A stretch of DNA of 64,000 bases from the NCBI GenBank assembly GCA_001896555.1, contig MPOS01000011.1:30223-94222 (forward strand), read 5' to 3'. The notes under the pieces were generated by a model, which did no database searches, was not told the DNA's origin, and worked only from the letters and a program-made list of their open reading frames with translations. The stretch is from Candidatus Phosphitivorax anaerolimi (GTDB taxonomy: Bacteria; Desulfobacterota; Desulfomonilia; UBA1062). Shown piece by piece: positions 7,154 through 44,441 of this stretch (position 1 is the first letter of the stretch; each line of letters starts with the position of its first letter). The position numbers and the translations under genes are program-made.

Positions 7154-8542
7154 ATGAGCACCAAGATATTATTGAATGAAGATGAGATCCCGAGGCAGTG
7201 GTACAATCTCGCGGCGGATCTGCCCACTCCCATGCAGCCGCCCCTGGGCCCGGACGGGAATCCCATCAAACCCGAGGATCTCGCTCCGATCTTCCCCATG
7301 AACCTCATCGAGCAGGAAGTGAGCCAGGAGCGCTGGATCGACATCCCGGAGGAGGTACTGGAGATTCTCTACCGGTGGCGTCCTTCACCCTTGCGCCGGG
7401 CAGTGCATCTCGAAAAGTTCCTGGGCACCCCGGCACGGATTTACTACAAGGACGAGGGGGTTTCTCCTCCCGGGAGCCACAAGCCCAACACCGCCGTTGC
7501 CCAGGCATGGTACAACAAGCAGTTCGGCATCAAAAAGATCACCACCGAGACCGGTGCAGGGCAGTGGGGCTGCGCCCTGGCGTTTGCGTGCGCCCTTCTG
7601 GGGCTGGAATGCAAGGTGTACATGGTGCGGATCTCCTTCGACCAGAAGCCGTTTCGGAAGCTGATGATGAACGTATGGGGCGCCACGTGCGTGGCAAGCC
7701 CCAGCCCGGACACCCAGGCCGGCCGGGACATCCTGGCAAAGACGCCTGATACCCCGGGGAGCCTCGGCATCGCCATCAGCGAGGCCATTGAAGAGGCGGT
7801 CTCGGACCCGAGCGGTCAGACCCGCTATGCCCTGGGCAGCGTGCTCAATCACGTGATGCTCCATCAGACTATCATCGGCCTGGAGGCCAAGAAACAGCTG
7901 AGCAAGGCAGGCGAGAAAAAGGTCGATGTAGTCATCGGCTGTGCCGGAGGAGGCAGCAACTTCGCAGGCATCGCCTTCCCCTTCGTGGCCGACAAGATCA
8001 ACGGTGCACAGATCGAGATCTATCCGGTAGAGCCCACCTCCTGTCCCACCCTGACGCGGGCTCCTTTCACGTATGACCACGGCGATGTGGCAAAGATGAC
8101 CCCGATGCTGCCCATGCACACCTTGGGGCACGGCTTTGTTTCTCCTCCTATCCATGCGGGCGGGCTCCGATACCACGGGATGGCCCCGCTGGTGAGCCAG
8201 GCCGTAGTAGAGGGCCTTCTCACACCCAAGGCCTACGACCAGCTCCACTGTTATCGGAGCGCACTCATCTGGGCCAAGACCGAGGGGTTCATCCCTGCCC
8301 CAGAGACCTCCCACGCCATTGCCGCGGTCATCGACGAGGCGAACAAGGCAAAGGAGGAAGGCAAGGAGAAGGTGATACTGTTCAACTGGAGCGGTCACGG
8401 CCTCATGGACCTGGTGGGGTATGCAAATTTCATGGACGGCAAGCTCATAGACTTTCCTCTGCCTGAAGAAGACCTCAAGGCATCGCTCAAGTCGATTGAG
8501 GGGCTACCCAAGGCGCCCATGGTAAAGTCCGGAAGGTGGTAA
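7154..8542 (+). CDS. trpB: TrpB2-type tryptophan synthase beta-subunit-like PLP enzyme.
   Basis: PLP-lysine motif GSHKPN. Long TrpB2-type N-terminus ([18 protein letters not shown]). Length 462 aa. Strong RBS AAGGAGG. Confidence 0.85.
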
Positions 8543-26813: not shown

Positions 26814-27164
26814 ATGCCGAAAACTCACGTCAGGCGCACCAGAGACCTCAGGAAGCGCTCCACCGACACAGAGCAGCCTCTCCGGCGGCACCTGCTGGCA
26901 AGGCAGATGTCAGGCCAGAAATTCAGTCGCCGGCAGACAGCCGGCGATTATATTGTCGATTTTCTCTGCTGTGAGAAAAGGGTGATCATCGAGCTCTATG
27001 GAGGCCAGCACGGCATTCACCAGGAAAAGGACATTATGCACGATTCATGGCTCAAAAAGCAGGGCCTTCGAGCTCTCCGGTTCAGGAACAACGAGGTTTT
27101 TTCCAATACTGACGGGGCACTGCAGACTGTCCCGGATGCATGCTCAGGGGGGGACGGGGCTTGA
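26814..27164 (+). CDS. DUF559 (Vsr-like endonuclease fold) protein.
   Basis: Segment LRKRSTDTEQPLRRHLLARQMSGQKFSRRQTAGDYIVDFLCCEKRVIIELYGGQH...LRFRNNEV matches the DUF559 consensus. I trimmed to the MPKTH start. Confidence 0.7.
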   Translation: MPKTHVRRTRDLRKRSTDTEQPLRRHLLARQMSGQKFSRRQTAGDYIVDFLCCEKRVIIELYGGQHGIHQEKDIMHDSWLKKQGLRALRFRNNEVFSNTDGALQTVPDACSGGDGA

Positions 27165-27298
27165 TCTTCAATTTCAACTCCCCCCACCCTGTCCCGCCTC
27201 CACTCAAGGAGGAGGGCGCGTGCACCCGTCGCGCCCAGCAGGGCTTCGCAGTGGGAGAGGGTCGGCGCTCCATTCCCCGGCATGCCGCTCAACTGCTG

Positions 27299-28792
27299 AT
27301 GCTGCTGGCTGCAGCGTTCATCCCGGCCTTCTTTTCCCCGCTCTACGCTTATGAGTACGATGGCGAGAACCTGGACATCTCCCTGAGCGGCTATCTCGAG
27401 GCCGGCGCCGTCTACGTACTGGACGACGAGTCGCCGGACGAGGATCCCACCACCGAGCTTGGCCTCGAGCTCAAGGCGGACTTTTCGACCGTGTCCACGC
27501 TCAAGATTTTTCTCCAGGCGGTGAACGACGGGACAGTCATCGACCCCCAAAACGGTCTGCTGTTCAATGAATTCGACAAGGTCTATCAGGACAAGAACCC
27601 GTACGTCGATATCGACGAGGCCTATGTGGACCTGTACTCGTCCTTCGTTGATCTGCGCATCGGCATCCAGAAGTTCGCCTGGGGCAGACTCGACGAGATC
27701 AACCCCACCGACAACCTCAACCCCGAGGACTTCAGGCATGGCATCACGGCCGACGAGATCGACCGGAAGATCGGCGTGCCCGCTCTCCGGGCCAACACGT
27801 ATTCGGATATCGTCAATGTGGAGCTGGCCTGGATACCCTGGTTTGTCCCCTATCGTCTGCCCACACCCGAGGAACGGTGGTTTCCGGGCGTGCTTCAGCC
27901 TCCTTCGTCTATCGACACCGGCACGTCGGCCGGCGCCATCCCGGTGGCCGCCCGATACAAGGATGTCGACGTCCCCGAGTTCAGCCTCGACGACTCCCAG
28001 GCAGGGATCCGACTGTCGAAATATGTCGGAGGCTGGGATCTCTCCGTAAGCTATTTCAGGGGCTACGATACCGTACCGCTCACCGATGTGGTCTCCGACC
28101 TTACCGTGGACCTTATCGACCCGCTGTCCCTCTCGTACGACCTTGCCCTAGACCTCACCTATCAACCGGCTCTCCATCGGATCCAAGTCTTCGGCTTCGA
28201 CTTCGCCACCACGGTGAGCTCGTTCACCATCCGCGGCGAGTTCGCTTATTTCAAGGGCAGGCATTACAACCGCAAGCTCGAGTCCGTTCTCAGGCAGGAG
28301 ATCACCCCGGCCCGCCAGCAGGCGATCATCGACGAGTTCATGCAGAACTATCTCGACTCCGGGGGGGCGGCGTCGCGGCAGACCTTCCGCATCGACCCGG
28401 AGGTGAACATCCAGATGGATTCCATGAAGTACGGGCTCGGCATCGACTATATCTACGGCGACACGAGCGTAAGCCTGCAGATGATCCAGGAGCTCATACC
28501 GGACTACGACAGGGACAGGCCGGTCTACTTCAACAAGGAGGGCCTGGATACCTTCCTCACCCTTCAGCTCAAGCAGTTCTTCCTCCAGAACACCATGGAG
28601 CTCGACCTGCGCGCCGCGTACGGCATCGAGTTTCAGGAGTATCTCGTGAAGCCCTCGCTGAAGTACAATTTCACCAACACGCTGCAGGGATCTATCGGGG
28701 TCGTGGTCCTGGGCGGCAAATACGACGACTCGCTCCTGGGTCAGTTCGACGACAACGACCAGATCTATGCGTTGCTGAAGTGCTTTTTCTGA
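27299..28792 (+). CDS. Outer-membrane protein, DUF1302-like, partner of the MMPL and LolA-like genes.
   Basis: Signal peptide MLLAAAFIPAFFSPLYA. Alternating beta-strand-like pattern. C-terminal KCFF ending in Phe. Genomic context with the MMPL and LolA-like genes. Confidence 0.5.
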   Translation: MLLAAAFIPAFFSPLYAYEYDGENLDISLSGYLEAGAVYVLDDESPDEDPTTELGLELKADFSTVSTLKIFLQAVNDGTVIDPQNGLLFNEFDKVYQDKNPYVDIDEAYVDLYSSFVDLRIGIQKFAWGRLDEINPTDNLNPEDFRHGITADEIDRKIGVPALRANTYSDIVNVELAWIPWFVPYRLPTPEERWFPGVLQPPSSIDTGTSAGAIPVAARYKDVDVPEFSLDDSQAGIRLSKYVGGWDLSVSYFRGYDTVPLTDVVSDLTVDLIDPLSLSYDLALDLTYQPALHRIQVFGFDFATTVSSFTIRGEFAYFKGRHYNRKLESVLRQEITPARQQAIIDEFMQNYLDSGGAASRQTFRIDPEVNIQMDSMKYGLGIDYIYGDTSVSLQMIQELIPDYDRDRPVYFNKEGLDTFLTLQLKQFFLQNTMELDLRAAYGIEFQEYLVKPSLKYNFTNTLQGSIGVVVLGGKYDDSLLGQFDDNDQIYALLKCFF

Positions 28793-29037: not shown

Positions 29038-31851
29038 TCAGCTCAAAGAGAGGAGATACGATCTCAGGTTCGCCTTTTCTTTCTTCAGCCCCAGCTTGTC
29101 TCTGATGTTGTTCCGGTGGAACTCTACGGCACGCTTGGAAATGTTGAGCAACTCCGAGATTTCCTTGGTCGACTTGCCCTCGCGCACCAGGTTCGCCACC
29201 TGGATCTCGGTGGGGGTGAGATTCAGATATTGGGCGGAGAGCTTCTGGAGGAAGGGAGAGATGATGTCGCCCAGGCTCGATTCCAGGAGCTGCACGTAGG
29301 CGGCCTGCCTGTCGTCGAGCGAGCATGCCTTGAGCTTTTCCAGATAGGGCAGGGCCAGCTCCTTGATGTTGGACAGGACCTTTTCCTCGAGCTCCTTCTT
29401 GTCCTGCTCGCCGCGCTTGAGCAGCACCTTGAGCGCGGTGTTGGCCTCCTCGAGATTCAGCGACTTGAGCTGAAGCTCCTCTTCCTTGCGCATGAGCGTC
29501 TGCTCGGCCAGCTTGCGCTCCTCGATCTCCCGCTTCAGCCTGATGTTCGCCCGGACGAGCTCCTCGGTCCGCTCCTCGACCCGTTGCTCGAGGCTCTCGT
29601 AGGCCTTCTGCAGCTTCTGCTCGGTGAGCTTGCGCTCGGTGATGTCCACGAACGAGCACAGCAGGCAGATGGGCCTGCCGTTCTCGTCCTTCACCATGCT
29701 CGCGGAGAGCTGCACCGCGATGGGCGTCCTGTTTTTCTTGACCGCGATGATCTCCCCGAACCAGGTGCCCTTTGCGAGCACGGTCTGGAGAATAGCGTCC
29801 GCGTCTTCCCGGGACTGGGCGAAGGTGAGCGCCGACTTTCCCAGGACCTCGGACGGATCCTTGCCGCCCCACATGCGGAGAAAGGCATCGTTGACATAGG
29901 TGATGTTGCCCTGAAGATCGCCGATAGCGATGCCGTTGATGGATGACGAGATGGCAAAGTCCTTGACCCTGAGCTCCTCTTCCATCTTCTTGCGCTCGGT
30001 GATGTCCACGAACGAGTCCATCACGCAGATGGGCTCGCCCCTGTCGTTGTACACCATGCTTGCCGAGAGGTGGACCGTGATCGGCGAGCCGTCGCTCCGG
30101 AAGCCGGACACCTCCCCTGACCAGCTTCCCTTCTCCACCACGGCCTGGAATATCTCCAGGGCTTCTTCTTCCGACTGCGCCAGATCGAGAACCGACCTGC
30201 CCAGTACCTCGGAGGGGTCTTCAGCACCCCACATGGCCAGCGCCGCGTCGTTGACGTAAGTGATCTTCCCTTCCAGATCACAGAAACCGATGCCGTCGAT
30301 GGACGAGGCGATGGCGTTTTCCCTGACCCTGAGCTCCTCTTCCATCTTCTTGCGCTCGGTGATGTCAACGAACGAGTCCATCATGCAGATGGGCTCGCCT
30401 TTGTCGTTTTTCACCAGGCTTGCCGAGAGCAGGACCGTAATCGGCGAGCCGTCCTTGCGGAAGCCGGACACCTCGCCCGTCCAGCTTCCCTTTTCCACGA
30501 TGGCCTGGAAGATCTCCAGGGCCTCCTGCTCGGATTGCGCGAGGTCCAGCGCAGACCTTCCCAGCACATCGGAGAGATCGCTGTCTCCCCACATCTTCAG
30601 GGCCGCATCGTTCACATAGGTGATTCTGCCTTCCAGATCGGAAATTCCGATGCCGTTGATGGACGAGGCGATGGCGTATTCTTTTATCTGTAGATCCTCC
30701 TCCATCTTCTTGCGCTCAGTGATGTCCACGAACGAGTCCATCATGCAGATGGGCTCGCCTTTGTCGTTTTTCACCAGGCTTGCCGAGAGCAGGACTGTAA
30801 TCGGCGAGCCGTCCTTGCGGAAGCCGGACACCTCGCCGGTCCACCCGCCTTTCTCCAGAACGGCCTGATAGATTTCTATGGCCTCTTCCTCCGACTGGGC
30901 TAGACTGAGCGCCGAGGTGCCGATGACCTCGGACGCATCCGGGGCCCCCCACATCTTCAGGGCCGCGTCGTTGACGTAGATAATGTTGCCCTCCAGGTCC
31001 GATATGCCGATGCCGTTGATGGACGACGCTAGGGCATTGTTCCTGATGCGCAGCTCCTCCTCCATCTTCTTGCGGTCAGTGATGTCCACGAACGAGCACA
31101 TGATGCAGATGGGCTCGCCTTTGTCGTTTTTCACCAGGCTTGCCGAGATGAGCACGGTGAAAGGATCACCGACTTTCCTCTTTGCGTTGACCTCTCCCTC
31201 CCACCTGCCGCTGGTGCGGATGGTGTCGATAATATCGAGGATCTCCTCCTGTGACTGGGCGAAAATCATCGCAGGTTTTCCCAGGACCTCATCGGGCTTT
31301 CCGGCACCCCACATCTTCAGGGCCGAATCGTTTGCATAGGTGATGACGCCGTCGAGGTCGGCGATGACGATGCCGTTGATGGACGAGGCCAGGGCGCTTT
31401 CCTTGACCCGCATCTCTTCTTCCATTTTCTTGCGGTCGGTGATGTCCACGAATGAGCACATCATGCACACGGGCTCGTTCGATTCATTGCGGACCAGGCT
31501 GGCCGAGAGCAGGACGGTGACCGGCGAGCCGTTTTTCCGCCGGCCGTTGATCTCTCCCGTCCAGTCGCCTTTGCACAGCACGGTCTCCATGATCTCCAGG
31601 GCCTCCTGCTCGGACTCGGCGAACACGGTCACCGGCTTGCCGATGATCTCCGCTGGGTCGGTCCCGCCCCACATCATGACGGCTGCCTGGTTCACATAGG
31701 TGATGGTGCCCTGCAGGTCGCCGATCGCAATGCCGTTGATCGACGATGCGATGGCGAACTCCTTGATCCGCAGCTCTTCCTGGATATACCTGAGCTCGTC
31801 GATCTTGTCTTTCAGGGGCTTGACTTCCTCGCTCATGCGGCTCGGCGGCAT
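29038..31851 (-). CDS. LuxR-family transcriptional regulator with eight tandem PAS domains and a C-terminal GerE-type HTH.
   Basis: C-terminal TPTEIQVANLVREGKSTKEISELLNISKRAVEFHRNNIR. Eight repeats of about 120 aa, each ending DITDRKKMEEELR/DITERKKMEE. Confidence 0.85.
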   Translation of the reverse strand: MPPSRMSEEVKPLKDKIDELRYIQEELRIKEFAIASSINGIAIGDLQGTITYVNQAAVMMWGGTDPAEIIGKPVTVFAESEQEALEIMETVLCKGDWTGEINGRRKNGSPVTVLLSASLVRNESNEPVCMMCSFVDITDRKKMEEEMRVKESALASSINGIVIADLDGVITYANDSALKMWGAGKPDEVLGKPAMIFAQSQEEILDIIDTIRTSGRWEGEVNAKRKVGDPFTVLISASLVKNDKGEPICIMCSFVDITDRKKMEEELRIRNNALASSINGIGISDLEGNIIYVNDAALKMWGAPDASEVIGTSALSLAQSEEEAIEIYQAVLEKGGWTGEVSGFRKDGSPITVLLSASLVKNDKGEPICMMDSFVDITERKKMEEDLQIKEYAIASSINGIGISDLEGRITYVNDAALKMWGDSDLSDVLGRSALDLAQSEQEALEIFQAIVEKGSWTGEVSGFRKDGSPITVLLSASLVKNDKGEPICMMDSFVDITERKKMEEELRVRENAIASSIDGIGFCDLEGKITYVNDAALAMWGAEDPSEVLGRSVLDLAQSEEEALEIFQAVVEKGSWSGEVSGFRSDGSPITVHLSASMVYNDRGEPICVMDSFVDITERKKMEEELRVKDFAISSSINGIAIGDLQGNITYVNDAFLRMWGGKDPSEVLGKSALTFAQSREDADAILQTVLAKGTWFGEIIAVKKNRTPIAVQLSASMVKDENGRPICLLCSFVDITERKLTEQKLQKAYESLEQRVEERTEELVRANIRLKREIEERKLAEQTLMRKEEELQLKSLNLEEANTALKVLLKRGEQDKKELEEKVLSNIKELALPYLEKLKACSLDDRQAAYVQLLESSLGDIISPFLQKLSAQYLNLTPTEIQVANLVREGKSTKEISELLNISKRAVEFHRNNIRDKLGLKKEKANLRSYLLSLS
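29560..31720. repeat. Tandem array of about 360-bp direct repeats (about 6-7 units) encoding the PAS modules of the regulator. Units 30360-30720 and 30720-31080 are near-identical.
   Basis: Out-of-frame ORFs recur at 30260, 30620, 30980 and 31340 with near-identical translations. The protein segment GEVSGFRKDGSPITVLLSASLVKNDKGEPICMMDSFVDITERKKMEE is repeated. Confidence 0.8.
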
Positions 31852-34899: not shown

Positions 34900-35478
34900 A
34901 TGCGAGGTCGGATGTTTGTAGCGATTCTTCTTGCCCTGTGTCTGTTCTGTTCCCCCGCCCACGCCTGGATGTGGGAAGTCGGCGACGAGGTTCTGGCCGA
35001 GATAACCGGCGAAGGCTATTCCAGTTTTACCCTCGAAAACGAAGTCGCCCGTGCATACTTCAACATCACCACCACCACCTACACCGAGATCGATTCCCTG
35101 AAAATGGGTTACTACGACAACGGCACCGGATACGGGTGGGACGAAAACTGGGAAGGCGTATCCCTGGGTTCTGCCTCCGAGAGTCTCGTGTGCAAGGGCG
35201 TGTACATCGAGGCGGGTTTTTCCAACATGACAGACCCTGCCACCCGGCAACTCAATTTCGTCAGGGTGGGCACACCGTCCATGACAGGCCCCATCAGCGC
35301 AAACTTTATTTCGTTCAGCGGCCGCATCGAGAACCCCACGGACGGCGTTCTCGTGGACGGCAGCCGGCTGAATCTCGGCCAGAGAACGATCTACTGCAAC
35401 AATTCGGAGTTTTCCGTAACCCTGGACAGGACCTCCGGCTGGTGGTTCCACTGGGACAATGCAACGATTACCCCGTGA
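34900..35478 (+). CDS. Secreted hypothetical protein (193 aa) carrying the cluster-specific mature-N-terminal motif.
   Basis: Signal peptide MRGRMFVAILLALCLFCSPAHA, then WMWEVGDEVLAEITGEGYS. RBS GGAGAG. Confidence 0.6.
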   Translation: MRGRMFVAILLALCLFCSPAHAWMWEVGDEVLAEITGEGYSSFTLENEVARAYFNITTTTYTEIDSLKMGYYDNGTGYGWDENWEGVSLGSASESLVCKGVYIEAGFSNMTDPATRQLNFVRVGTPSMTGPISANFISFSGRIENPTDGVLVDGSRLNLGQRTIYCNNSEFSVTLDRTSGWWFHWDNATITP

Positions 35479-35737: not shown

Positions 35738-36784
35738 ATGAAGAGAGTATTGACGTTTTTGGCTATCATGTTGCTGCCATTGTCCGTAATGGCAATGACA
35801 CCGGTTTCCGACCAGACCCTCTCCGATGTTACCGGCCAGGCCGGAGTCAACATCAATGCTGACCTTATGATGGACATCGCCATCGGCACCATGGCATGGG
35901 GCGATGCCGACGGTATCACTGCAAGCGGCAGCTGGCCTACCTGGGGCACCACTGCTGACGGCGGCTACGTGGGAGTCACCGGGTTCGACATTGACGGCCT
36001 GAGAATCAAGGCCCGCGAAACCGACACCTATCACGAATATGCGGCACCTGCACAGCTGAAGCCCATCACCATCGACGTTGCCACCGATCCAAACATCTAC
36101 GACGGAGCGACCTTTGTGCGGTTCGGCCTCGGCTCCCTCCAGATCACCATGGGCGCCCTCGACTTCGACGTGAGGCTCGGGACTGACGCGGCAACCCTCG
36201 CGGCTTCCGGCAACCTGCTCGGTGTTGTGAGCATCGGCGCCATGGGCATCTACATCGATCCCAAGAGCTATGTTGACATCTTCTCCGACGGCACCTGCGG
36301 CGTGAACATAGCCATGGACATCGAGATCGATCAGTTCAACATCGGCTACGTGTCCTGGGGCGACACCGACGGCGTGACCAACACAGGCATGGGCGCGATG
36401 CCCTGGATGGCTGCGGCTAGCGCCGGTTATGTCGGACTTGCCAACCTCGAGATCGGCGGCCCGATCACCGTCAGCGGTCAGCTGGCAATCGATGTCAACA
36501 CCGCCTATGCCGGCATCTACTCCCACGGCATAGTCGGGACCGATGCGGGCGCAGCCCCTGTGAGCGTTGTTCACATCCAGTTCGGCTCCGACGTCTACTC
36601 GGATCCCACTCTGGGCGCTGCTGACCTCTTCTCCGTACTCGTCGGCCCGATCACTGCCGAGGTGAAACTCGACGGCGTGGCAGCCCTGGACGGCGCCAAT
36701 GCCGGCACGCTGGGCGACATCTACATCAGCAGCTTCGGCCTCGACATCTATGGCGGCAGCTGGGTGGACATCTGGGCCCACTAA
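35738..36784 (+). CDS. Secreted protein, paralog A (348 aa). It carries the N-terminal LSDVTGQAGV motif, internally duplicated WGDxDG modules and the C-terminal SWVDIWAH.
   Basis: Signal peptide MKRVLTFLAIMLLPLSVMA, mature N-terminus MTPVSDQTLSDVTGQAGVNIN. The duplication WGDADGIT...GGYVGVTGFDIDG versus WGDTDGVT...AGYVGLANLEIGG. Confidence 0.7.
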   Translation: MKRVLTFLAIMLLPLSVMAMTPVSDQTLSDVTGQAGVNINADLMMDIAIGTMAWGDADGITASGSWPTWGTTADGGYVGVTGFDIDGLRIKARETDTYHEYAAPAQLKPITIDVATDPNIYDGATFVRFGLGSLQITMGALDFDVRLGTDAATLAASGNLLGVVSIGAMGIYIDPKSYVDIFSDGTCGVNIAMDIEIDQFNIGYVSWGDTDGVTNTGMGAMPWMAAASAGYVGLANLEIGGPITVSGQLAIDVNTAYAGIYSHGIVGTDAGAAPVSVVHIQFGSDVYSDPTLGAADLFSVLVGPITAEVKLDGVAALDGANAGTLGDIYISSFGLDIYGGSWVDIWAH

Positions 36785-36898: not shown

Positions 36899-37924
36899 AT
36901 GAAGATAATGAAAAGCGCATCACTGGCCGTGCTGATCGTTGCGTTCCCGCTCTCCATGATGGCCATGACGCCGGTGCGGGATCACGATCTCTCCCAGGTG
37001 ATCGGCCAGGCCGGTGTGAGCATCAATACCGACATCATGATGAACATCGCCATCGACACCCTGGCATGGGGTGATTACGACGGCATTTTCGAAGGCGGCC
37101 ATCCCTCCTGGGGCACCACCGCTGACGGCGGCTATGTGGGACTGGCCGGGTTCGACGTCATCGGGCTCAGGATCAAGGCCCGCGAAAACGACACCTTCGG
37201 CGGGTATTCCGCTGCAGCGGACTTCAAGCCGATCACCATCGACGTCGCCTCCGACCCGACCTACAGCCTCTACAGCGGGTTCACCTTCGTGCGGTTCGGC
37301 CTCGGCTCCCTCCAGATCACCGTGGACCAGATGGACTTCGCGGTCTTTCTTGCAGCCCCCGGCGCCCCGGGCCAGGTGCTCGGCACGGTAAATCTCGGCG
37401 CGCTCGCCATGTACGTCAACCCGTGGAGCTACGTAGACATCTATAACAGCAGGCCGGGCAACCAGTGCGGGGTTTTCGTGACCATGAGCGTCGTGATCGA
37501 CCAGCTCGATATCGGCTATCTGTCGTGGGGCGACATTGACGGCGTGGCCAATGAAGGCATCGGCGCGATGAGCTGGATGTCAGATGGCGCGCAGGGAGCC
37601 GGCTATGTCGGGCTCTCCAACCTGCGAGTGTGGGGGCCCATCATCATGCAGGGAACGGTCGCCATCGATGTGACGACCTCGTATGAAGGCATCTACGCCC
37701 ACGGCTCGTTTGGGGACCCGGGCTGGGCCCCTGTGAGCGTTGTGCACATCGGGTTTCCCCAGGTATTCAGCCTGGATGTGGCGGGACCCATCACCGCCGA
37801 TGTGAAGCTGGACAGCTTCGCTTCCCTGAACAGTCCTGATGCCGGCACACTGGGCAACATCTATATCTCGGGACTCGGCATCGATATCCTGAACCGCAGC
37901 TGGGTGGACATCTGGGCGCACTGA
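36899..37924 (+). CDS. Secreted protein, paralog B (341 aa). A tandem duplicate of paralog A.
   Basis: Signal peptide, then MTPVRDHDLSQVIGQAGVSIN. Same WGDxDG modules and the identical C-terminus SWVDIWAH. Confidence 0.7.
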   Translation: MKIMKSASLAVLIVAFPLSMMAMTPVRDHDLSQVIGQAGVSINTDIMMNIAIDTLAWGDYDGIFEGGHPSWGTTADGGYVGLAGFDVIGLRIKARENDTFGGYSAAADFKPITIDVASDPTYSLYSGFTFVRFGLGSLQITVDQMDFAVFLAAPGAPGQVLGTVNLGALAMYVNPWSYVDIYNSRPGNQCGVFVTMSVVIDQLDIGYLSWGDIDGVANEGIGAMSWMSDGAQGAGYVGLSNLRVWGPIIMQGTVAIDVTTSYEGIYAHGSFGDPGWAPVSVVHIGFPQVFSLDVAGPITADVKLDSFASLNSPDAGTLGNIYISGLGIDILNRSWVDIWAH

Positions 37925-38114: not shown

Positions 38115-38999
38115 ATGAGCCCTGGCAGGAAAGGATACCGTCTTTTTTCCCGGCATTTCGCACTGTTTGCTCTTTTCGTTTTCTTTCTCCCCATTTCCGC
38201 TCCGGCTCAGATGAGCCGGCTGAGCGATGACGAGCTCTCCGAGGTGAGCGCCCGCTCGGGCATCACCTATGTGATCGGCGATTCACAGCTGCGCGTCTAC
38301 GCCGACTCATACCGGGTCTCCGACACAGATCACACCCCGCGCCACTGGATCGAGCTCAACGATTTCACCGTCGATGACGGCCAGGGCGGCTACTTCTCCA
38401 TGAACACCCCCGCTGACTACGACGACTTCAACACCCTCGACATCGGCACCACCGGCGAGGGGGATACGTATATTTTCATGAATCTTTCCACTCACGTAGA
38501 GCCGAGGACCTACACTGTCGGGAACTTCGTCTTCTGCGACCAGGACCTGGGCGGAATCAGGCTGGAAAACCTCAGGAAGGGGACTTCGGACACGTTTATC
38601 ATAGGCCCCCACGGCGATGGGATGTCCGGCATCGACATCGAGTATCAGACAGAGATCACCATCGACTCTCTGCAGTACACCTACAATACCCAGCCCGAAT
38701 CGCTCAACCTCACCGGCATCCGATTTGCCGGCAGCGCGCTCGGTGCGCCGGAAGATCCGTCATCCTGGATCTTTTCGGGAAAGTTCAAGTTCGGCGATCT
38801 TGCGAACAACAGGCCTGTGACCATTGATGTCGGTACCTATGATGACGGTGCTGTCACGTCGACCTCGGTGTTCTACAACGCACCCATGTCCGGCAGCATC
38901 CGGGTGGAAAACGTGGATTTCGGAGGGAACCAGTTCGGCCCCTGCGCCATCGACGGCATAACCGTTCATCATCTCGGCATCCAGATACCCGGTAATTGA
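38115..38999 (+). CDS. Secreted hypothetical protein with a related mature-N-terminal motif (protein C).
   Basis: Signal peptide MSPGRKGYRLFSRHFALFALFVFFLPISAPA, then QMSRLSDDELSEVSARSGITYVIGD. RBS AAAGGAGATAAAGG. The stop overlaps the next gene. Confidence 0.6.
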   Translation: MSPGRKGYRLFSRHFALFALFVFFLPISAPAQMSRLSDDELSEVSARSGITYVIGDSQLRVYADSYRVSDTDHTPRHWIELNDFTVDDGQGGYFSMNTPADYDDFNTLDIGTTGEGDTYIFMNLSTHVEPRTYTVGNFVFCDQDLGGIRLENLRKGTSDTFIIGPHGDGMSGIDIEYQTEITIDSLQYTYNTQPESLNLTGIRFAGSALGAPEDPSSWIFSGKFKFGDLANNRPVTIDVGTYDDGAVTSTSVFYNAPMSGSIRVENVDFGGNQFGPCAIDGITVHHLGIQIPGN

Positions 39000-39808
39000 C
39001 AGGGGCGGGCAAATCTGGGAGAATCCGGACTATGGAGGTTATCGCGGGCTTCCTCATCGTTCTGGCTATACTTACCACGCTCCATCCCGTCAGTGACGTA
39101 TCGGAAAGCGAACTGACGTTGTACCCGGAAGTGCCTGGAATTCAGCATGTTTTGAGATATGAGGTCAAGCCGTACTCTGTCATGAAGGACGAGAACATCG
39201 TCAAGCAGCAGTTCGACTACAGTTGCGGTTCTGCGGCGCTGGCAACCCTCCTGAACTACTACCTGGGCGAGAACTTCACCGAGGAGCAGGTGATCCAGGG
39301 GCTGATGGAGTATGGCGACATCAAGCAGCTGGAGGAGAGGCGCGCGTTCTCTCTGCTGGATATGAAGCGGTTTGTTACGGTTCTCGGCTACCAGGGCACG
39401 GGCTACACTGCGGAGCTCGAAGATCTGAAGAAGCTCGACAAGCCATGCATCGTTCCGATCGAGTTTTTCGGGTACAGGCACTTCGTGGTTTACCGTGGCA
39501 TATATGGCGATCATGTGTTCTTCGCCGACCCCTTCATGGGCAACATCAGCTTCACCTTATCGGAATTTGAAGAAATGTGGCACAGAAATATCGTGTTTAT
39601 CGTGACCGACGGCGGAGTCACCATGGATGCGCTTCTCCTCAAGGAGGAGGATTTGCGGCTCGTGGAGATCATCAGGACGAGCGATGCTCTTCCCGAGCAT
39701 GCACGTTCGACCATTCTGATCGAGCAGCAGAAGTTCATGGAATCCATCGGGAGGATCGACGAGGACGCGAACAGGAGATACCAGTTCAAGAGCATCAATG
39801 TCTATTGA
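38996..39808 (+). CDS. Membrane-anchored peptidase C39-family cysteine protease, standalone and predicted periplasm-facing.
   Basis: One N-terminal TM helix (EVIAGFLIVLAILTTL). Catalytic Cys in QQFDYSCGSAALATLLNYYLG. His and Asp in GYRHFVVYRGIYGDHVFFADPFMG. The TTG start overlaps the upstream TGA; an alternative ATG at 39032 has RBS GGGAGA. Confidence 0.7.
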   Translation: MTGAGKSGRIRTMEVIAGFLIVLAILTTLHPVSDVSESELTLYPEVPGIQHVLRYEVKPYSVMKDENIVKQQFDYSCGSAALATLLNYYLGENFTEEQVIQGLMEYGDIKQLEERRAFSLLDMKRFVTVLGYQGTGYTAELEDLKKLDKPCIVPIEFFGYRHFVVYRGIYGDHVFFADPFMGNISFTLSEFEEMWHRNIVFIVTDGGVTMDALLLKEEDLRLVEIIRTSDALPEHARSTILIEQQKFMESIGRIDEDANRRYQFKSINVY

Positions 39809-39841: not shown

Positions 39842-40915
39842 TTGACAGGTTACAGCAAGAGGAGACCATACGTGAAGAGACTCGCTGTTTTGATTGCTGT
39901 GTTTTTTTGCTGCCTTGTTTGTGCTGCCGACGGGAGCGCCCAGGAGCAGGAAACAGGAAGAGAGGAGCTTCTGAACCGTATCGAGGAGCTGGAGAAACGG
40001 ATCAATGAATTGACGGAAGAGAGCCGCGCCAGAAGAAGACTGGAGATCACCGAGCAGGAGAAGCAGGAGAAGGAGAAGGAAGTGCTCGAAGCAGTGGGCA
40101 GAGAATACTCTCTCGAACCAAAGCGCACGCTCGGGCTCGACTATACGCTGTCGTACAAGTATACCCCAAGCGAGAGGATTCTCAATCAGCTCCTGATCGA
40201 ACGCCAGATAGATCACGAGATCAAGCACACCATCACTACATCGTACAGCATCCTCGACAATCTGACCTTCAGCGCGGGCATTCCTTTCGTATACCGGTAC
40301 AACGAAGTGGGCACGGACAAAGAGCTGGATGAAACCGACATCGGTGATATTACCCTGGGATTTTTGATCCAGCCCATCAAGTCGAAGGCCGGCGATGTGC
40401 GGACAATTCTGGGCCTGAGCGCCTCATTGCCCACGGGCAGGAGCCCCTTCAAGATCAACCCCGAGACAGAGCTCTCGACCGGCAACGGTGTGTATGACTT
40501 TTCGCTCACCGCAAGCTTCAGCAAGCAGATCGATCCTGTTGTGGCCTTCTGGAACCTCGGCTACACCTACCGCATGGATGCCACTGGTCTGGATTACAGA
40601 GTTATGGAGCAACTAATATTGGAAGAGGTGGAGACAGGGAACTCCATCTCCGCGGGGGCAGGGATCGGCTATGCACTTTCTTACAAAGTATCGGTGAACT
40701 CGTCTTTCAGCTACACCTATCATTTCAGCTCTGCATATAAGTATACGGGTGCAGCTCAGGACGTTGAGTCCGGAGACAGATCTGAGGCCACGTTCGGCGT
40801 GGGCTTGGGCTGGAAAGCAACAAACAAGACCACCCTTTCTTTCAGTCTCGGGTACAGTCTCACGGGGTCGGGCTTCACGTTTACGGTCAGGGCCCCGTTC
40901 AGCTTTGTCCTATGA
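39842..40915 (+). CDS. Outer-membrane beta-barrel protein with an N-terminal coiled-coil segment.
   Basis: Signal peptide LAVLIAVFFCCLVCAADG. Coiled coil EELLNRIEELEKRINELTEESRARRRLEITEQEKQEKEKE. Beta-strand-rich remainder ending FSFVL. Confidence 0.55.
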   Translation: MTGYSKRRPYVKRLAVLIAVFFCCLVCAADGSAQEQETGREELLNRIEELEKRINELTEESRARRRLEITEQEKQEKEKEVLEAVGREYSLEPKRTLGLDYTLSYKYTPSERILNQLLIERQIDHEIKHTITTSYSILDNLTFSAGIPFVYRYNEVGTDKELDETDIGDITLGFLIQPIKSKAGDVRTILGLSASLPTGRSPFKINPETELSTGNGVYDFSLTASFSKQIDPVVAFWNLGYTYRMDATGLDYRVMEQLILEEVETGNSISAGAGIGYALSYKVSVNSSFSYTYHFSSAYKYTGAAQDVESGDRSEATFGVGLGWKATNKTTLSFSLGYSLTGSGFTFTVRAPFSFVL

Positions 40916-40929
40916 GGGGAGAGTGTATT

Positions 40930-42615
40930 ATGCTATTGAGGAGGTTTCCGGCTATTTGCCTGCTGCTGATCGCGGGTTTGATCAGCCCCATGCCGGCGCG
41001 TGCCGGGCTTTTCGAGCAGCTCGCGGTCTGCCCCGCGGCCTCGTCCCTGGGCAGCGCGGTGACCGCCTATCCCGAGGGGTGCGGCGGGCTGGCCGTGCAT
41101 TTCAACCCGGCCCATCTGGCGACCTATGAGGCCAGCCGCTTCGACAATGCGCTGATATTCACCATAAACAAGCGGGAGGCAACGTACACCCAGGGGATCG
41201 ACCCGGAAACCGGCGAGCTCTGGGCGCCATTCGGCGGCTGGTTCAACGACGGCAAAGACCCTCTGGACGGTGCACATGCCGAGCAGCAGAGCGGGTATAT
41301 GGTGATCCCCATCGTCGACTACGAGATCCCCTACCTGGCAGGTGCGGGCATGGGGATCATCTACAAGCCGCCCGAGCCCGAGTCGCGGCTCACCTTCGGA
41401 TTCGGACAGTATGCCCCCTTTGCGGTGGGGCTGAAGAATCACAGCGGAGACCCGTTCAGCTTCATGGGCAGGAAGGCCTTCTTCCTCCGCATGGTCCTGG
41501 CGGCCCCGGCGGTTGCATATAAGCTCACCGACACCATATCCATAGGCGCCTCGGTAGGGATCGGGGTCACCCTGTTCAGCTTCCAGACGAACATGAGAAC
41601 GCCCAACACCATGGTCGCACTGACCGGCGCCCTGGGTGAGGCGACCGAAGGTCTGGAGATCCCGGTGATATCAGAGCTGACTTTCCCGCCGCCCTGGTTC
41701 GGCGGCGGAATGCACCCCTATGAGAAATCGGGCGAGCTTGAGCTCCTGGTGGAGGACTACTTCACCACCTCGTACAACCTGGGCTTTCTGTGGGAGCCCA
41801 CGCCCTGGTTTGCCTTCGGGGCCTGTTACCAGAGCGAGTCCGAGACCACTATGGAAGGCGACTACAAGTTTTCCTACGAACGTAGATTTCAGAACACGGT
41901 CGCCTGGCTGGGGCGTTCTCCCCTGACGATCATAACAGCCGCCATGTTCGACCTGCCCTACCAGGCAGTGCCCCATCAGAAGGGCACCGCCACCGTCAGC
42001 ATGACCTGGCCCGCCCGCCTTCAGCTCGGCGTCAAACTGAAGCCCATAAAACAGCTCGTGCTCACCTGCGACGCCCACTGGACCGACTGGGAGGCATGGC
42101 CTACTCTCGAGATACAGTTCGACCAGAAGATTCAGCTTCTGAGATTCGCCCGGATGCTCGGGTATATGAACAGTCCCAAGGCCATGGTTTTGAATCTGGG
42201 TTTTGAGAACACCTGGCATTTCAGCTACGGAATCGAGATACGCCCCATCAAGCGGCTCGCCCTGCGCTTCGGGTATGAGCCCAGACCCACTTCCGTGCAG
42301 GACGACCTCTTCGGCCCTGTGCCCATGTCGGATATGGATATCTATTCTGTGGGGATCGGGTTTACCATCGAGGACCATCCCAAGCCCAAGCCCGGCAACT
42401 TCCATGAACTGCTCAAACAGATTCAGCATCCGACCGCAATCGACCTCAATGTGACGCTTGTGCAGCTCAAAGACAAGACGGTGGGGTTCAACGAAAGCAC
42501 GAATATGAACTCGATAGATTTCACCGACATTGTCTACAACCCGTATGCGGGCCTTGAGTACGAGCAGGAGATGTCCGTATGGGTGATATCGCTGAATCAG
42601 GTGTTCAAGTGGTGA
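40930..42615 (+). CDS. FadL/TodX-family outer-membrane hydrophobic-compound channel.
   Basis: Signal peptide MLLRRFPAICLLLIAGLISPMPARA. FadL-like N-terminus GLFEQLAVCPAASSLGSAVTAYPEGCGGLAVHFNPAHLA containing the NPA motif. RBS GAGGGGAGAG. Confidence 0.65.
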   Translation: MLLRRFPAICLLLIAGLISPMPARAGLFEQLAVCPAASSLGSAVTAYPEGCGGLAVHFNPAHLATYEASRFDNALIFTINKREATYTQGIDPETGELWAPFGGWFNDGKDPLDGAHAEQQSGYMVIPIVDYEIPYLAGAGMGIIYKPPEPESRLTFGFGQYAPFAVGLKNHSGDPFSFMGRKAFFLRMVLAAPAVAYKLTDTISIGASVGIGVTLFSFQTNMRTPNTMVALTGALGEATEGLEIPVISELTFPPPWFGGGMHPYEKSGELELLVEDYFTTSYNLGFLWEPTPWFAFGACYQSESETTMEGDYKFSYERRFQNTVAWLGRSPLTIITAAMFDLPYQAVPHQKGTATVSMTWPARLQLGVKLKPIKQLVLTCDAHWTDWEAWPTLEIQFDQKIQLLRFARMLGYMNSPKAMVLNLGFENTWHFSYGIEIRPIKRLALRFGYEPRPTSVQDDLFGPVPMSDMDIYSVGIGFTIEDHPKPKPGNFHELLKQIQHPTAIDLNVTLVQLKDKTVGFNESTNMNSIDFTDIVYNPYAGLEYEQEMSVWVISLNQVFKW

Positions 42616-42929: not shown

Positions 42930-44441
42930 GTGAAGAGGAAGGCTGCTTACACCATATTGGTTTCCCTGGTATTCTGCGGACTTGCGCCCATGACGATTAC
43001 TGCGGAGGATAAGGCCGCCCTCAGGGAAGAGATCATTCGGCTGGTGGAGCCGGTCGAGAAGTATCAGATCATATTTGAGTCGTTCGTGCCGAGCCCTGAT
43101 TCCCAGCACGTGGCCTGCGTGGCCCGGTCGGGCAAAAAGTTTGTCGTGATGCATGACGGCAAGGCCCAGAAGGAGTATCACTCAATCGCCAAGGAAACCC
43201 CTGTCTTCAGCCCTGATTCCCAGCACATGGCCTACAAGGCCCAGGAAGGCATCAAGTGGGTCGTCGTGCGCGACGGCAAGGAGGAAGAGCGGTTCGACAA
43301 CGTGAGCGTCCCTGAGTACAGCCCTGATTCGAAGCACCTGGCATATGTCGCCCAGAACGGAAAAAAGCAGCAGGTGGTGTTTGACGGCAAGAAGCACAAG
43401 GCCTACGACGGCATACCCCTGAAGCACAACCTGGTGTTCAGCCCCGATTCGCAGCATTTCGCCTACTCCGTCCTGAAGGGGGGCAAAATGGTGGTGGTGA
43501 TGGACGGCAAGGAGGGAAAGGAATACGACCAGGTTTCGTTCCCGATATTCAGCCCGGACTCGAAGCACATGGTCTACCCTGCCAGGAGAGGGGATAAATG
43601 GTTTGTGGTAAAGGACGGGGAAGAAGGGCCCGAGTATGACCTTGTTGGTGTGTTCAGGTTCAGCCCTGACAGCTCCCGGTTTGCCTACACGGCAAAGATC
43701 GGCGGCAAGGCAGTGATGGTGGATGACGGCAAGGAGGGGCCGAAATTCACAGACATCGCCATGCCCATGTTCAGCCCTGACTCGAAGCACATGGCCTATC
43801 TGGCCATCGACGGCGACAAGATGCTCATGGTCATGGACGGGAATAAGGGCAAAAAGTATGACGAGATCAACGACCTGGCCTTCAGCCCGGACTCCGCCCG
43901 GTATCTCCTCACCGTAAGAAGCGGCAAAGACTGGACGGCCATTGTCGACGGAAAAGAAGCGGGCAGATACACGAACATCTTCCTGCCCGGCTTCAGCCCG
44001 GATTCAAAGCATTATTCGTTCATGGCCAGGAAGGGCGAGAAGTGGCTCCTAGTGTATGACGGGAAAGACGGCACGCTCTACGATTTCGTCACCCTCGCCC
44101 AGTTCAGCAGGGATTCGAACCACTATGCCTTCATGGCGAAAAAAGGCGAAAAGTGGGTGGTGGTGAAGGACGGCAGGGAGTCTCAGGAGTACGACGGGGT
44201 AGCGCTTCCGATGTTCTCGCCTGATTCCAGGCACTTCGCCTTCGCTGCAGTGAGAGACAACGCCTGGTTCGTGGTGGCGGACGGGGTGGAGGGGAACGAG
44301 CGCTTTGCCGGGTTCCTGAAAGGAACCGCTCTGCTGTTCGAAACAGATGATGTCTTTCACATCCTGGGCCTCCAGCTCAACATGGTCAGCCCCACCGAAG
44401 CGAGCATGAATATCGTGAAGCTCAAAGGGGAGATCAAATAA
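42930..44441 (+). CDS. Lipoprotein composed of about 11 tandem PD40/TolB-like repeats.
   Basis: GTG start with RBS AAGGAG. Signal peptide VSLVFCGLAPMTITA. The repeat is FSPDS(K/Q)H(M/L/F)AY.A..G.KW.VV.DGKEG.(E/K)YD. Confidence 0.7.
   Translation: MKRKAAYTILVSLVFCGLAPMTITAEDKAALREEIIRLVEPVEKYQIIFESFVPSPDSQHVACVARSGKKFVVMHDGKAQKEYHSIAKETPVFSPDSQHMAYKAQEGIKWVVVRDGKEEERFDNVSVPEYSPDSKHLAYVAQNGKKQQVVFDGKKHKAYDGIPLKHNLVFSPDSQHFAYSVLKGGKMVVVMDGKEGKEYDQVSFPIFSPDSKHMVYPARRGDKWFVVKDGEEGPEYDLVGVFRFSPDSSRFAYTAKIGGKAVMVDDGKEGPKFTDIAMPMFSPDSKHMAYLAIDGDKMLMVMDGNKGKKYDEINDLAFSPDSARYLLTVRSGKDWTAIVDGKEAGRYTNIFLPGFSPDSKHYSFMARKGEKWLLVYDGKDGTLYDFVTLAQFSRDSNHYAFMAKKGEKWVVVKDGRESQEYDGVALPMFSPDSRHFAFAAVRDNAWFVVADGVEGNERFAGFLKGTALLFETDDVFHILGLQLNMVSPTEASMNIVKLKGEIK
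43060..44300. repeat. About 117-bp tandem DNA periodicity underlying the PD40-like protein repeats.
   Basis: The recurring peptide FSPDSKH-AY at roughly 39-aa spacing implies in-frame DNA repeats. Confidence 0.6.

Follow-up and report, generated by a model that had tools for sequence, protein, structure and literature searches.

A stand-alone C39 peptidase of the FilB/FapD class in a Desulfobacterota locus and a leader-like motif behind the export signals of its neighbours

The Fap system of Pseudomonas (fapABCDEF) and the Fil pilus system of Acinetobacter (filABCDEF) build biofilm fibres in pathogens, and hence a protease and substrate pair from such a system is a possible anti-biofilm target. 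Both systems encode a stand-alone extracytoplasmic C39 cysteine peptidase, FapD and FilB, respectively. FapD carries a Sec signal and acts in the periplasm; a form exported with the OmpA signal complements, and the secretion of FapC requires the catalytic Cys of FapD (Rouse et al. 2017, PMC5557850). Papers of 2024 and 2025 describe FapD merely as a protease. In the present study, we analysed a gene of this class in a stretch of 64,000 nucleotides from Candidatus Phosphitivorax anaerolimi (contig MPOS01000011.1, positions 30,223 to 94,222), here called the window. We consider it probable that its product is a C39 peptidase of the FilB/FapD class, anchored in the inner membrane and facing the periplasm, which serves as the maturation peptidase of a Fil/Fap-like fibre secretion system and would cut the leader-bearing proteins encoded next to it. 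Taken by itself, the gene is a routine addition to the FapD/FilB class, as a branch of it in the Desulfobacterota; what is new is the bacteriocin-like leader that its likely substrates carry directly past their export signals.

The comparison with PF03412 (Peptidase_C39), proposed when the DNA had earlier been read from its letters alone (the sequence-only reading), gave a single match of 63.8 bits against a cut-off of 22 (E=1.8e-17; residues 66-202 of the 270-residue open reading frame (ORF) and profile positions 2-128 of 133). No ATP-binding cassette (ABC) transporter was found among the larger ORFs read or scanned within about 10 kb on either side, and a stand-alone C39 domain behind one N-terminal hydrophobic helix, as that reading had described, is therefore confirmed. 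The motifs it quoted (DYSCGSAAL, HFVVYRG and ADPFMG) are present in the translation, in which nucleotides 39206-39232 read QQFDYSCGS and nucleotides 39479-39532 read HFVVYRGIYGDHVFFADP. The oxyanion-hole Gln59 stands six residues ahead of the catalytic Cys65, and His150 and its supporting Asp166 are present. In a phmmer search of the PDB sequences, these motifs aligned with the catalytic Cys/His/Asp regions of LahT150 (6mpz, E=3e-8) and PCAT1. Furthermore, all four residues were invariant in 13 close homologues (51-86% identity) and were kept in about 97% of 150 aligned representatives (Gln 145/148, Cys 147/148, His 146/149 and Asp 146/150); the catalytic Cys is thus conserved among the relatives. 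The AlphaFold2 (AF2) model, built with 77 sequences, had a mean predicted local distance difference test score (pLDDT) of 85.4; the core was above 90, residues 2-17 formed a helix and the tail (residues 210-258) was poorly defined. Its best Foldseek matches in the PDB were the peptidase domains of PCAT1 (4ry2), ComA and LahT150, with a target TM-score of about 0.8 and a root-mean-square deviation (rmsd) of 2.3 Å; the matches included 5xe8 (TM-score 0.83, rmsd 2.3 Å), 6mpz, 3k8u and PCAT1, with E from 4e-8 to 5e-7. From the conserved catalytic residues and this modelled fold, we conclude that the gene encodes an intact C39 cysteine peptidase with predicted activity. A pseudo-peptidase was rejected on the intact and conserved Gln/Cys/His/Asp set.

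Among the described families, FilB was the best match. The peptidase scored 207.1 bits on its profile NF050078 ('putative pilus system C39 family peptidase FilB'; 3.3e-61, profile positions 46-220 of 277), under the cut-off of 475, and 114.9 bits on the FapD profile NF058616 ('fibril amyloid maturation endopeptidase FapD'; 3.1e-33), under the cut-off of 330; for comparison, Aeromonas FapD gave 249 bits on NF058616. By these profile matches, the window peptidase is homologous to FilB and FapD and falls under the NCBI cut-offs for either. It shares with FilB about 47% identity in the core, an N-terminus of Met followed by a hydrophobic helix, a C-terminal LxLK..D[LM]R motif and the gene order FilA-like, FilB, FilC, FilD. 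The Fil locus has one filA and belongs to a gammaproteobacterial host, whereas the window has four candidate substrate genes from three families and its host is a member of the Desulfobacterota. The gene downstream of the barrels gave no match to FilE or FilF and encodes a PD40 protein instead; two genes upstream of the locus were without a Pfam match and lay outside the NCBIfam scan. FapD likewise adjoins a transporter of the FapF type, with coiled coil and beta-barrel, and has conserved catalytic Cys and His, but it carries a cleavable Sec signal where the window peptidase has an uncharged, anchor-like helix. The Fap cargo consists of N/Q-rich amyloid repeat proteins (FapB/FapC), while the presumed cargo here consists of all-beta DUF6160 proteins, and the window locus has a second, FadL-like barrel that Fap does not have. 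An exhaustive search of 1.84 billion representatives at 50% identity found at least 2,069 clusters (E≤1e-3), of which 1,052 reached E≤1e-10, and the top 150 representatives were mostly stand-alone proteins of 200-300 amino acids. The stand-alone extracytoplasmic C39 peptidase is an already described and abundant class, and the arrangement, held to be unusual in the sequence-only reading, is shared with thousands of members.

The genes around the peptidase follow the same plan. NCBIfam profiles matched the neighbours as FilA-like (9e-12 and 8.7e-10), FilC (2.5e-44), FapF (7e-20) and FilD (5.4e-83), all under the curated cut-offs; the FapF-like barrel, for instance, gave 71 bits against a cut-off of 700, and the PD40 protein matched the TmcD family at 8.4e-46, also under its cut-off. 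The FilC/FapF-like protein has a signal peptide and an N-terminal periplasmic coiled coil, and is the presumed secretion channel. In a survey of species-representative genomes, at least 599 stretches matched and at least 557 loci encoded a relative. The best 80 of these loci were almost all labelled Deltaproteobacteria or Desulfobacterota (Desulfomonilia, Smithella/Syntrophia, Desulfobacterales and Geobacter), and the closest relative among the matches listed, with 93% identity, came from a metagenome-assembled genome labelled 'Deltaproteobacteria bacterium'. Of 68 loci, 61 had a FilC-like gene downstream of the peptidase; FilC-like and FilD-like genes were both present in 46 of 53 loci, a substrate homologue was encoded upstream in 45 of 57 and a PD40 protein was present in 21 of 41. 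Judged by this gene order, the peptidase sits in a conserved Desulfobacterota operon for four exported proteins, the C39 peptidase, a FapF/FilC-like barrel and a FadL/FilD-like barrel. Promoter and terminator counts in a scan of 33-45 kb were at or under chance and are therefore uninformative on operon structure. The coordinates are collected in Table 1.

Table 1. Positions of the peptidase, its parts, the neighbouring genes and the leader-like segments in the window (peptidase residues in 258-residue numbering).
Feature	Position	Strand	Remarks
FilB/FapD-type stand-alone C39 cysteine peptidase	39032..39808	+	258 aa, ATG start
Mechanical ORF of the peptidase	38996..39808	+	270 aa, TTG start
N-terminal uncharged hydrophobic helix of the peptidase	residues 2-17, nt 39035-39082	+	
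C39 core of the peptidase	about residues 55-195 of 258		
Catalytic codons of the peptidase	Gln59 (39206), Cys65 (39224), His150 (39479), Asp166 (39527)	+	
C-terminal extension of the peptidase	beyond core end near residue 192-195 of 258		about 65 aa
Candidate substrate 1, 'p212' family	34900..35478	+	without Pfam or NCBIfam match
Candidate substrate 2, DUF6160/FilA-like	35738..36784	+	348 aa
Candidate substrate 3, DUF6160/FilA-like paralogue	36899..37924	+	341 aa
Candidate substrate 4, distant DUF6160 protein	38115..38999	+	294 aa; ends 32 nt ahead of peptidase start
FilC/FapF-like outer-membrane beta-barrel (Phenol_MetA_deg family)	39842..40915	+	starts about 33 nt past peptidase gene
FilD-like OmpP1/FadL/TodX outer-membrane protein	40912..42615	+	4-nt overlap with end of FilC-like gene
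Exported PD40/TolB-like beta-propeller repeat protein	42930..44441	+	503 aa, at least 11 FSPDSxH repeats
Predicted propeptide of substrate 1	motif window -12 to +3, nt 34978-35022		WMWEVGDEVLAEITGE before GYS, after signal peptide ...CSPAHA; 18.8 bits
Predicted propeptide of substrate 2	motif window -12 to +3, nt 35804-35848		MTPVSDQTLSDVTGQ before AGV, after signal peptide ...LSVMA; 43.4 bits
Predicted propeptide of substrate 3	motif window -12 to +3, nt 36974-37018		MTPVRDHDLSQVIGQ before AGV; 27.3 bits
Predicted propeptide of substrate 4	motif window -12 to +3, nt 38220-38264		QMSRLSDDELSEVSAR before SGI, after signal peptide ...ISAPA; 30.3 bits
Peptides spanning the motif			MTPVSDQTLSDVTGQAGVNINADL, QMSRLSDDELSEVSARSGITYV, WMWEVGDEVLAEITGEGYSSFTL

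One N-terminal pattern was common to all homologues of the four upstream genes, across three otherwise different families. A Sec signal peptide ending in AxA is followed directly by [VLIM]-[ST]-D-x-[ED]-L-[SA]-x-[VI]-[TS]-[GA]-[Q/R/E], then by x-G-[VIF] and by a family-specific body. Among 160 non-redundant instances, the residues were D in 79% at position -10, L in 81% at -7, V or I in 94% at -4, G in 72% and A in 28% at -2, and Q in 64% at -1, where the search expression itself constrained some of the columns. A position-specific scoring matrix (PSSM) trained on other loci gave exactly four six-frame matches above 12 bits in the window (34978, 35804, 36974 and 38220; scores in Table 1), each just past the signal peptide of one upstream gene, and 20 shuffles of the window gave no match above 12 bits (top score 11.0). 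In many Desulfobacterota a 'p212' gene is a conserved first member of the locus, and in its product the leader-like motif precedes G[FY]SxFT. In the AF2 model of the FilA-like protein encoded at 35738-36784 (pLDDT 84), the leader is a short helix (residues 25-31) detached from the all-beta body, with a disordered VTGQ linker (pLDDT below 50) between the two. This body (model m59189e857bc7) has long antiparallel strands and gave no significant fold match in a Foldseek search of the PDB (best E 0.17); the fold of the Fil-type fibre subunits appears to be structurally uncharacterised.

The motif coincides with the consensus of double-glycine leaders (L-12, S-11, E-8, L-7, I-4, G-2, G-1), save at position -1. 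After cleavage by signal peptidase, the window propeptides would have 15-16 residues, about as many as the leader of colicin V. A double-glycine PSSM made from 21 known leaders chose the same register in 138 of 144 substrates, and in 135 of 144 when its two Gly columns were left out; 82% of the substrates scored above the 95th percentile of the shuffled maxima. Of ten post-signal segments, two were matched by the curated 15-position model TIGR01847 (15.3 and 13.9 bits, where the cut-off is 15.7), with model positions 2-14 ending on the Gly at -2. The leaders processed by the peptidase domains of the peptidase-containing ABC transporters (PCAT), also called ABC transporter maturation and secretion (AMS) exporters, share with the window candidates the hydrophobic residues at -12, -7 and -4, the acidic residue at -8 and the Gly at -2. 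These domains (ComA-PEP 3k8u/5xe8, LahT150 6mpz and PCAT1 4ry2) also have the same fold and the same Gln/Cys/His/Asp arrangement as the window peptidase, with 28-29% identity for LahT150. The window peptidase differs from them in that it has no fused ABC transporter (258 amino acids, no transporter domains) and is probably extracytoplasmic. In PCAT the leader is the N-terminus of the precursor and the cargo is moved across the inner membrane, whereas the candidate leader comes after a Sec signal peptide, has no Gly at -1 and would belong to a system that moves its cargo across the outer membrane.

The same motif was found at other loci as well. Acinetobacter FilA carries it past the signal peptide, as MDDAALSAATGQ before DG, and a bona fide A. 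baumannii FilA (333 bits on NCBIfam) reads ...ISANAMA, then MQSMDDAALSAATGQ, then DGINI. At a distant locus (L086), a C39 relative with a classical signal peptide adjoins an 828-residue N/Q-rich repeat protein (...LTESELDGVSAQ before GL) and a 162-residue protein (...LSDEALDDVHAK before GL). The larger of the two (L086 426-2912) is an exported protein with Asn/Gln-rich repeats (NNNNSVQL..AQ) and an amyloid-like look, which adjoins a FapF-like barrel as well as the peptidase, and L086 is possibly a Fap-like amyloid system whose subunit is very large. In a fap operon of Aeromonas, the co-encoded exported protein FapE holds [LM]-x-D-x-[ED]-L-x-x-L-R-G-R before Y-V, which is a likeness to the window cargo. 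Its residues D40, L43, R47, G48 and R49 were invariant in ten homologues (44-86% identity), all from a search that reached Aeromonas-like sequences only, with Pseudomonas FapE outside the comparison. Among the Fap proteins, loss of the N-terminus has been reported for FapE alone (Rouse et al., PMC5557850). A literature search, which was incomplete, found no published description of the leader-like motif, and almost nothing was found on DUF6160 and the Fil pilus.

The motif thus ties together FilA pilins, FapE, an unannotated family and amyloid-like repeat proteins, and it gives a concrete peptide for testing. We tentatively extend the idea to the class: the periplasmic stand-alone C39 peptidases (FilB, FapD and the Desulfobacterota clade) might read a 'second leader' after the Sec signal, of the form Phi-[ST]-D-x-[ED]-L-x-x-[VI]-x-[GA]-x, that defines the cargo of FapF/FilC systems (DUF6160/FilA, 'p212', N/Q-rich amyloid-like proteins and FapE) and whose removal is coupled to translocation across the outer membrane. 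If this is true, it names the long-unidentified substrate motif of FapD and describes a periplasmic analogue of PCAT export. A Sec signal with a double-glycine-like leader behind it would then be a sequence rule for finding the cargo of such outer-membrane secretion systems in genomes.

In the mechanism that we propose for the window locus, the four upstream proteins would be exported by Sec, and signal peptidase I would cleave after AxA. This would leave an N-terminal propeptide of 15-16 residues, with hydrophobic residues at -12, -7 and -4, Ser or Thr at -11, acidic residues at -10 and -8 and Gly or Ala at -2. The membrane-anchored C39 peptidase would bind this amphipathic leader and cut at, or just past, the G/A-x position. 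The processed subunit would then cross the adjacent FapF/FilC-like trimeric outer-membrane channel and assemble on the cell surface. Type V pili, which are cut by gingipain, and LapA, which is cut by LapG, offer a parallel in which an extracytoplasmic cysteine protease trims an N-terminal segment and thereby controls assembly or release. The parallel is one of analogy, as the protease families and the recognition motifs are unrelated to those of the window peptidase.

Several points weigh against this mechanism. Cleavage at the leader-like motif is a prediction for every member of the group. The window leaders scored 4.8-8.0 bits on the double-glycine PSSM, against 16-33 for true leaders, and would not stand out in a blind six-frame scan, where the best chance matches reach 8.4-14.3 bits; the resemblance is significant solely through its fixed position and register. 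The search expression and the set of known leaders are, moreover, not fully independent detectors. At -1 the motif has Gln, Arg, Glu or another residue in place of Gly, and the S1 pockets of canonical C39 peptidases are narrow, therefore the scissile bond is uncertain. Furthermore, the motif runs on into a conserved block (+1 to +8), and it could therefore belong to the mature fold.

The best surviving alternative, which we judge unlikely, takes up the last two of these points. The peptidase would be periplasmic and active, but it would cut the FilC/FapF-like channel, at the linker that joins its coiled coil to its barrel, or some other accessory protein. This cut would gate the channel open or shut, and the DUF6160 motif would be a targeting or assembly element that stays uncleaved, with the conserved block behind it as mature protein. 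FapF itself has been proposed as a target of FapD, with cleavage in its linker raised as a possibility (Rouse et al., PMC5557850). Against this, the leader PSSM had no match in the FilC-like, FilD-like or PD40 proteins. The motif is common to three otherwise unrelated cargo families and to FapE, whose N-terminus is lost in vivo, and in the AF2 model of the FilA-like protein it lies outside the fold, as a detached helix with a disordered linker.

The proposed cleavage of the leader-bearing neighbours also depends on the side of the membrane on which the C39 domain lies. In the window peptidase, Met-Glu stands ahead of the helix and the net charge over the 15 residues past it is -4, and these charges favour an N-in/C-out orientation. 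Among close homologues, 114 of 116 have no Lys or Arg before the helix, and most have one or two within the 15 residues after it. These flanks are ambiguous and only weakly informative, which leaves the topology of an N-terminus free of Lys and Arg unsettled by sequence alone and counts against our reading; a positive-inside analysis was accordingly rejected as a proof of topology. The relatives and the context are more telling. The N-termini of the 150 representatives comprised 64 classical Sec signal peptides and 14 lipoprotein signals (78 of 150), with 30 of the window/FilB type; in one relative, encoded in an equivalent locus, the signal peptide is a classical one, and Acinetobacter FilB has an uncharged N-terminus like that of the window peptidase. 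Every conserved neighbour of the peptidase is an exported or outer-membrane protein. From these signals, the FapD experiments, which are the one experimental proof of a periplasmic location in this class, and the neighbours, we infer that the C39 domain is very probably periplasmic and held by an uncleaved signal-anchor. The sequence-only reading had placed the domain in the periplasm, acting on Sec-exported proteins, and in this it was most likely right.

A topology of N-out/C-in, with a cytoplasmic C39 domain that processes the precursors before export in the manner of PCAT, is very unlikely. The positive-inside rule would permit it on the flanks of most close homologues, where the Lys and Arg residues follow the helix and none precede it, but the window protein itself carries its negative charges there. 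A cut past the motif in the cytoplasm would strip the Sec signal from every substrate. The Sec and lipoprotein signals on the same domain in its relatives, the activity of FapD exported with the OmpA signal and the lack of an ABC exporter within about 10 kb likewise stand against it. The weakest alternative, in which we place hardly any credence, is a non-catalytic C39-like chaperone or adaptor of the HlyB type, or an orphan bacteriocin-processing peptidase unrelated to its neighbours: C39-like pseudo-peptidases do exist, 3zua was among the weaker Foldseek matches and the family is best known from bacteriocin export, but the catalytic residues are conserved as given above, a six-frame scan of the window had no canonical double-glycine peptide (best 11.0 bits, shuffles 8.4-14.3) and the gene order with Fil/Fap-like genes is kept in about 90% of the loci. 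A split PCAT or orphan bacteriocin system was rejected on the same absence of a canonical leader from the window and of an ABC transporter from the scanned larger ORFs within about 10 kb.

The start of the gene bears on the topology argument of the sequence-only reading, which had taken the ORF from position 38996 and had relied on positive residues (KSGRIR) before the helix. The TTG at 38996 is the first start codon past a stop at 38993. The ATG at 39032 matches the Met at which all the peptidase homologues begin, and the closest of them have 258 amino acids and an N-terminus of Met followed by Glu, Pro or Val and directly by the hydrophobic helix. Gene callers gave the same length of 258 amino acids on four near-identical metagenome contigs. 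A Shine-Dalgarno sequence (GGGAGAA) lies 8 nucleotides upstream of this ATG, and in 40 of 76 related loci an in-frame stop occurs at most 12 codons upstream of the conserved Met. By this comparison, the true start is almost certainly the ATG at 39032, and KSGRIR, being upstream of it, is probably untranslated; therefore the argument from these residues is unsound. The same TTG is also the first base of a promoter-like match (TTGACA-17-GAGAAT, 38996-39024), which is probably a coincidence, because such matches are no commoner here than in shuffled sequence.

The segment beyond the C39 core, put at roughly 90 residues in the sequence-only reading, is the shorter one of Table 1. It carries an ALxLK[ED]EDLRx[VI] motif that is conserved in the Desulfobacterota peptidases (in the window, residues 199-211, nucleotides 39626-39664, with ALxLKEEDLRxV at about residues 198-209) and has its counterpart in Acinetobacter FilB as LLALKDADMRHVE (L085 7310-7702). 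The idea that this C-terminal 'LKEEDLRLV' is an autoinhibitory pseudo-leader was rejected: it scored -0.5 bits on the substrate PSSM, and the best matches of the homologues (median 0.9) stayed within those of shuffles (95th percentile 6.9). In A. baumannii DETAB-P16 (NZ_CP077849.1; L085 6863-7702), an in-frame stop at 7301-7303 divides filB into two ORFs (145 and 130 amino acids); either a pseudogene or a sequencing error is possible. The record NZ_CP077849.1, of 3.66 Mb, is filed as a 'plasmid' in PLSDB, yet it is chromosome-sized.

The flanks within about 10 kb of the locus encode a PAS-LuxR regulator, a DUF1302 protein, an LPG_synthase_TM protein, a TPR protein and genes of the GDP-fucose pathway. 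The regulator (29038-31851, minus strand, 937 amino acids) combines six PAS domains with a LuxR-type helix-turn-helix and could control the locus, which starts about 3 kb downstream of it and on the other strand. The DUF1302 protein, an outer-membrane protein, is encoded beyond this regulator, at 27140-28792 on the plus strand.

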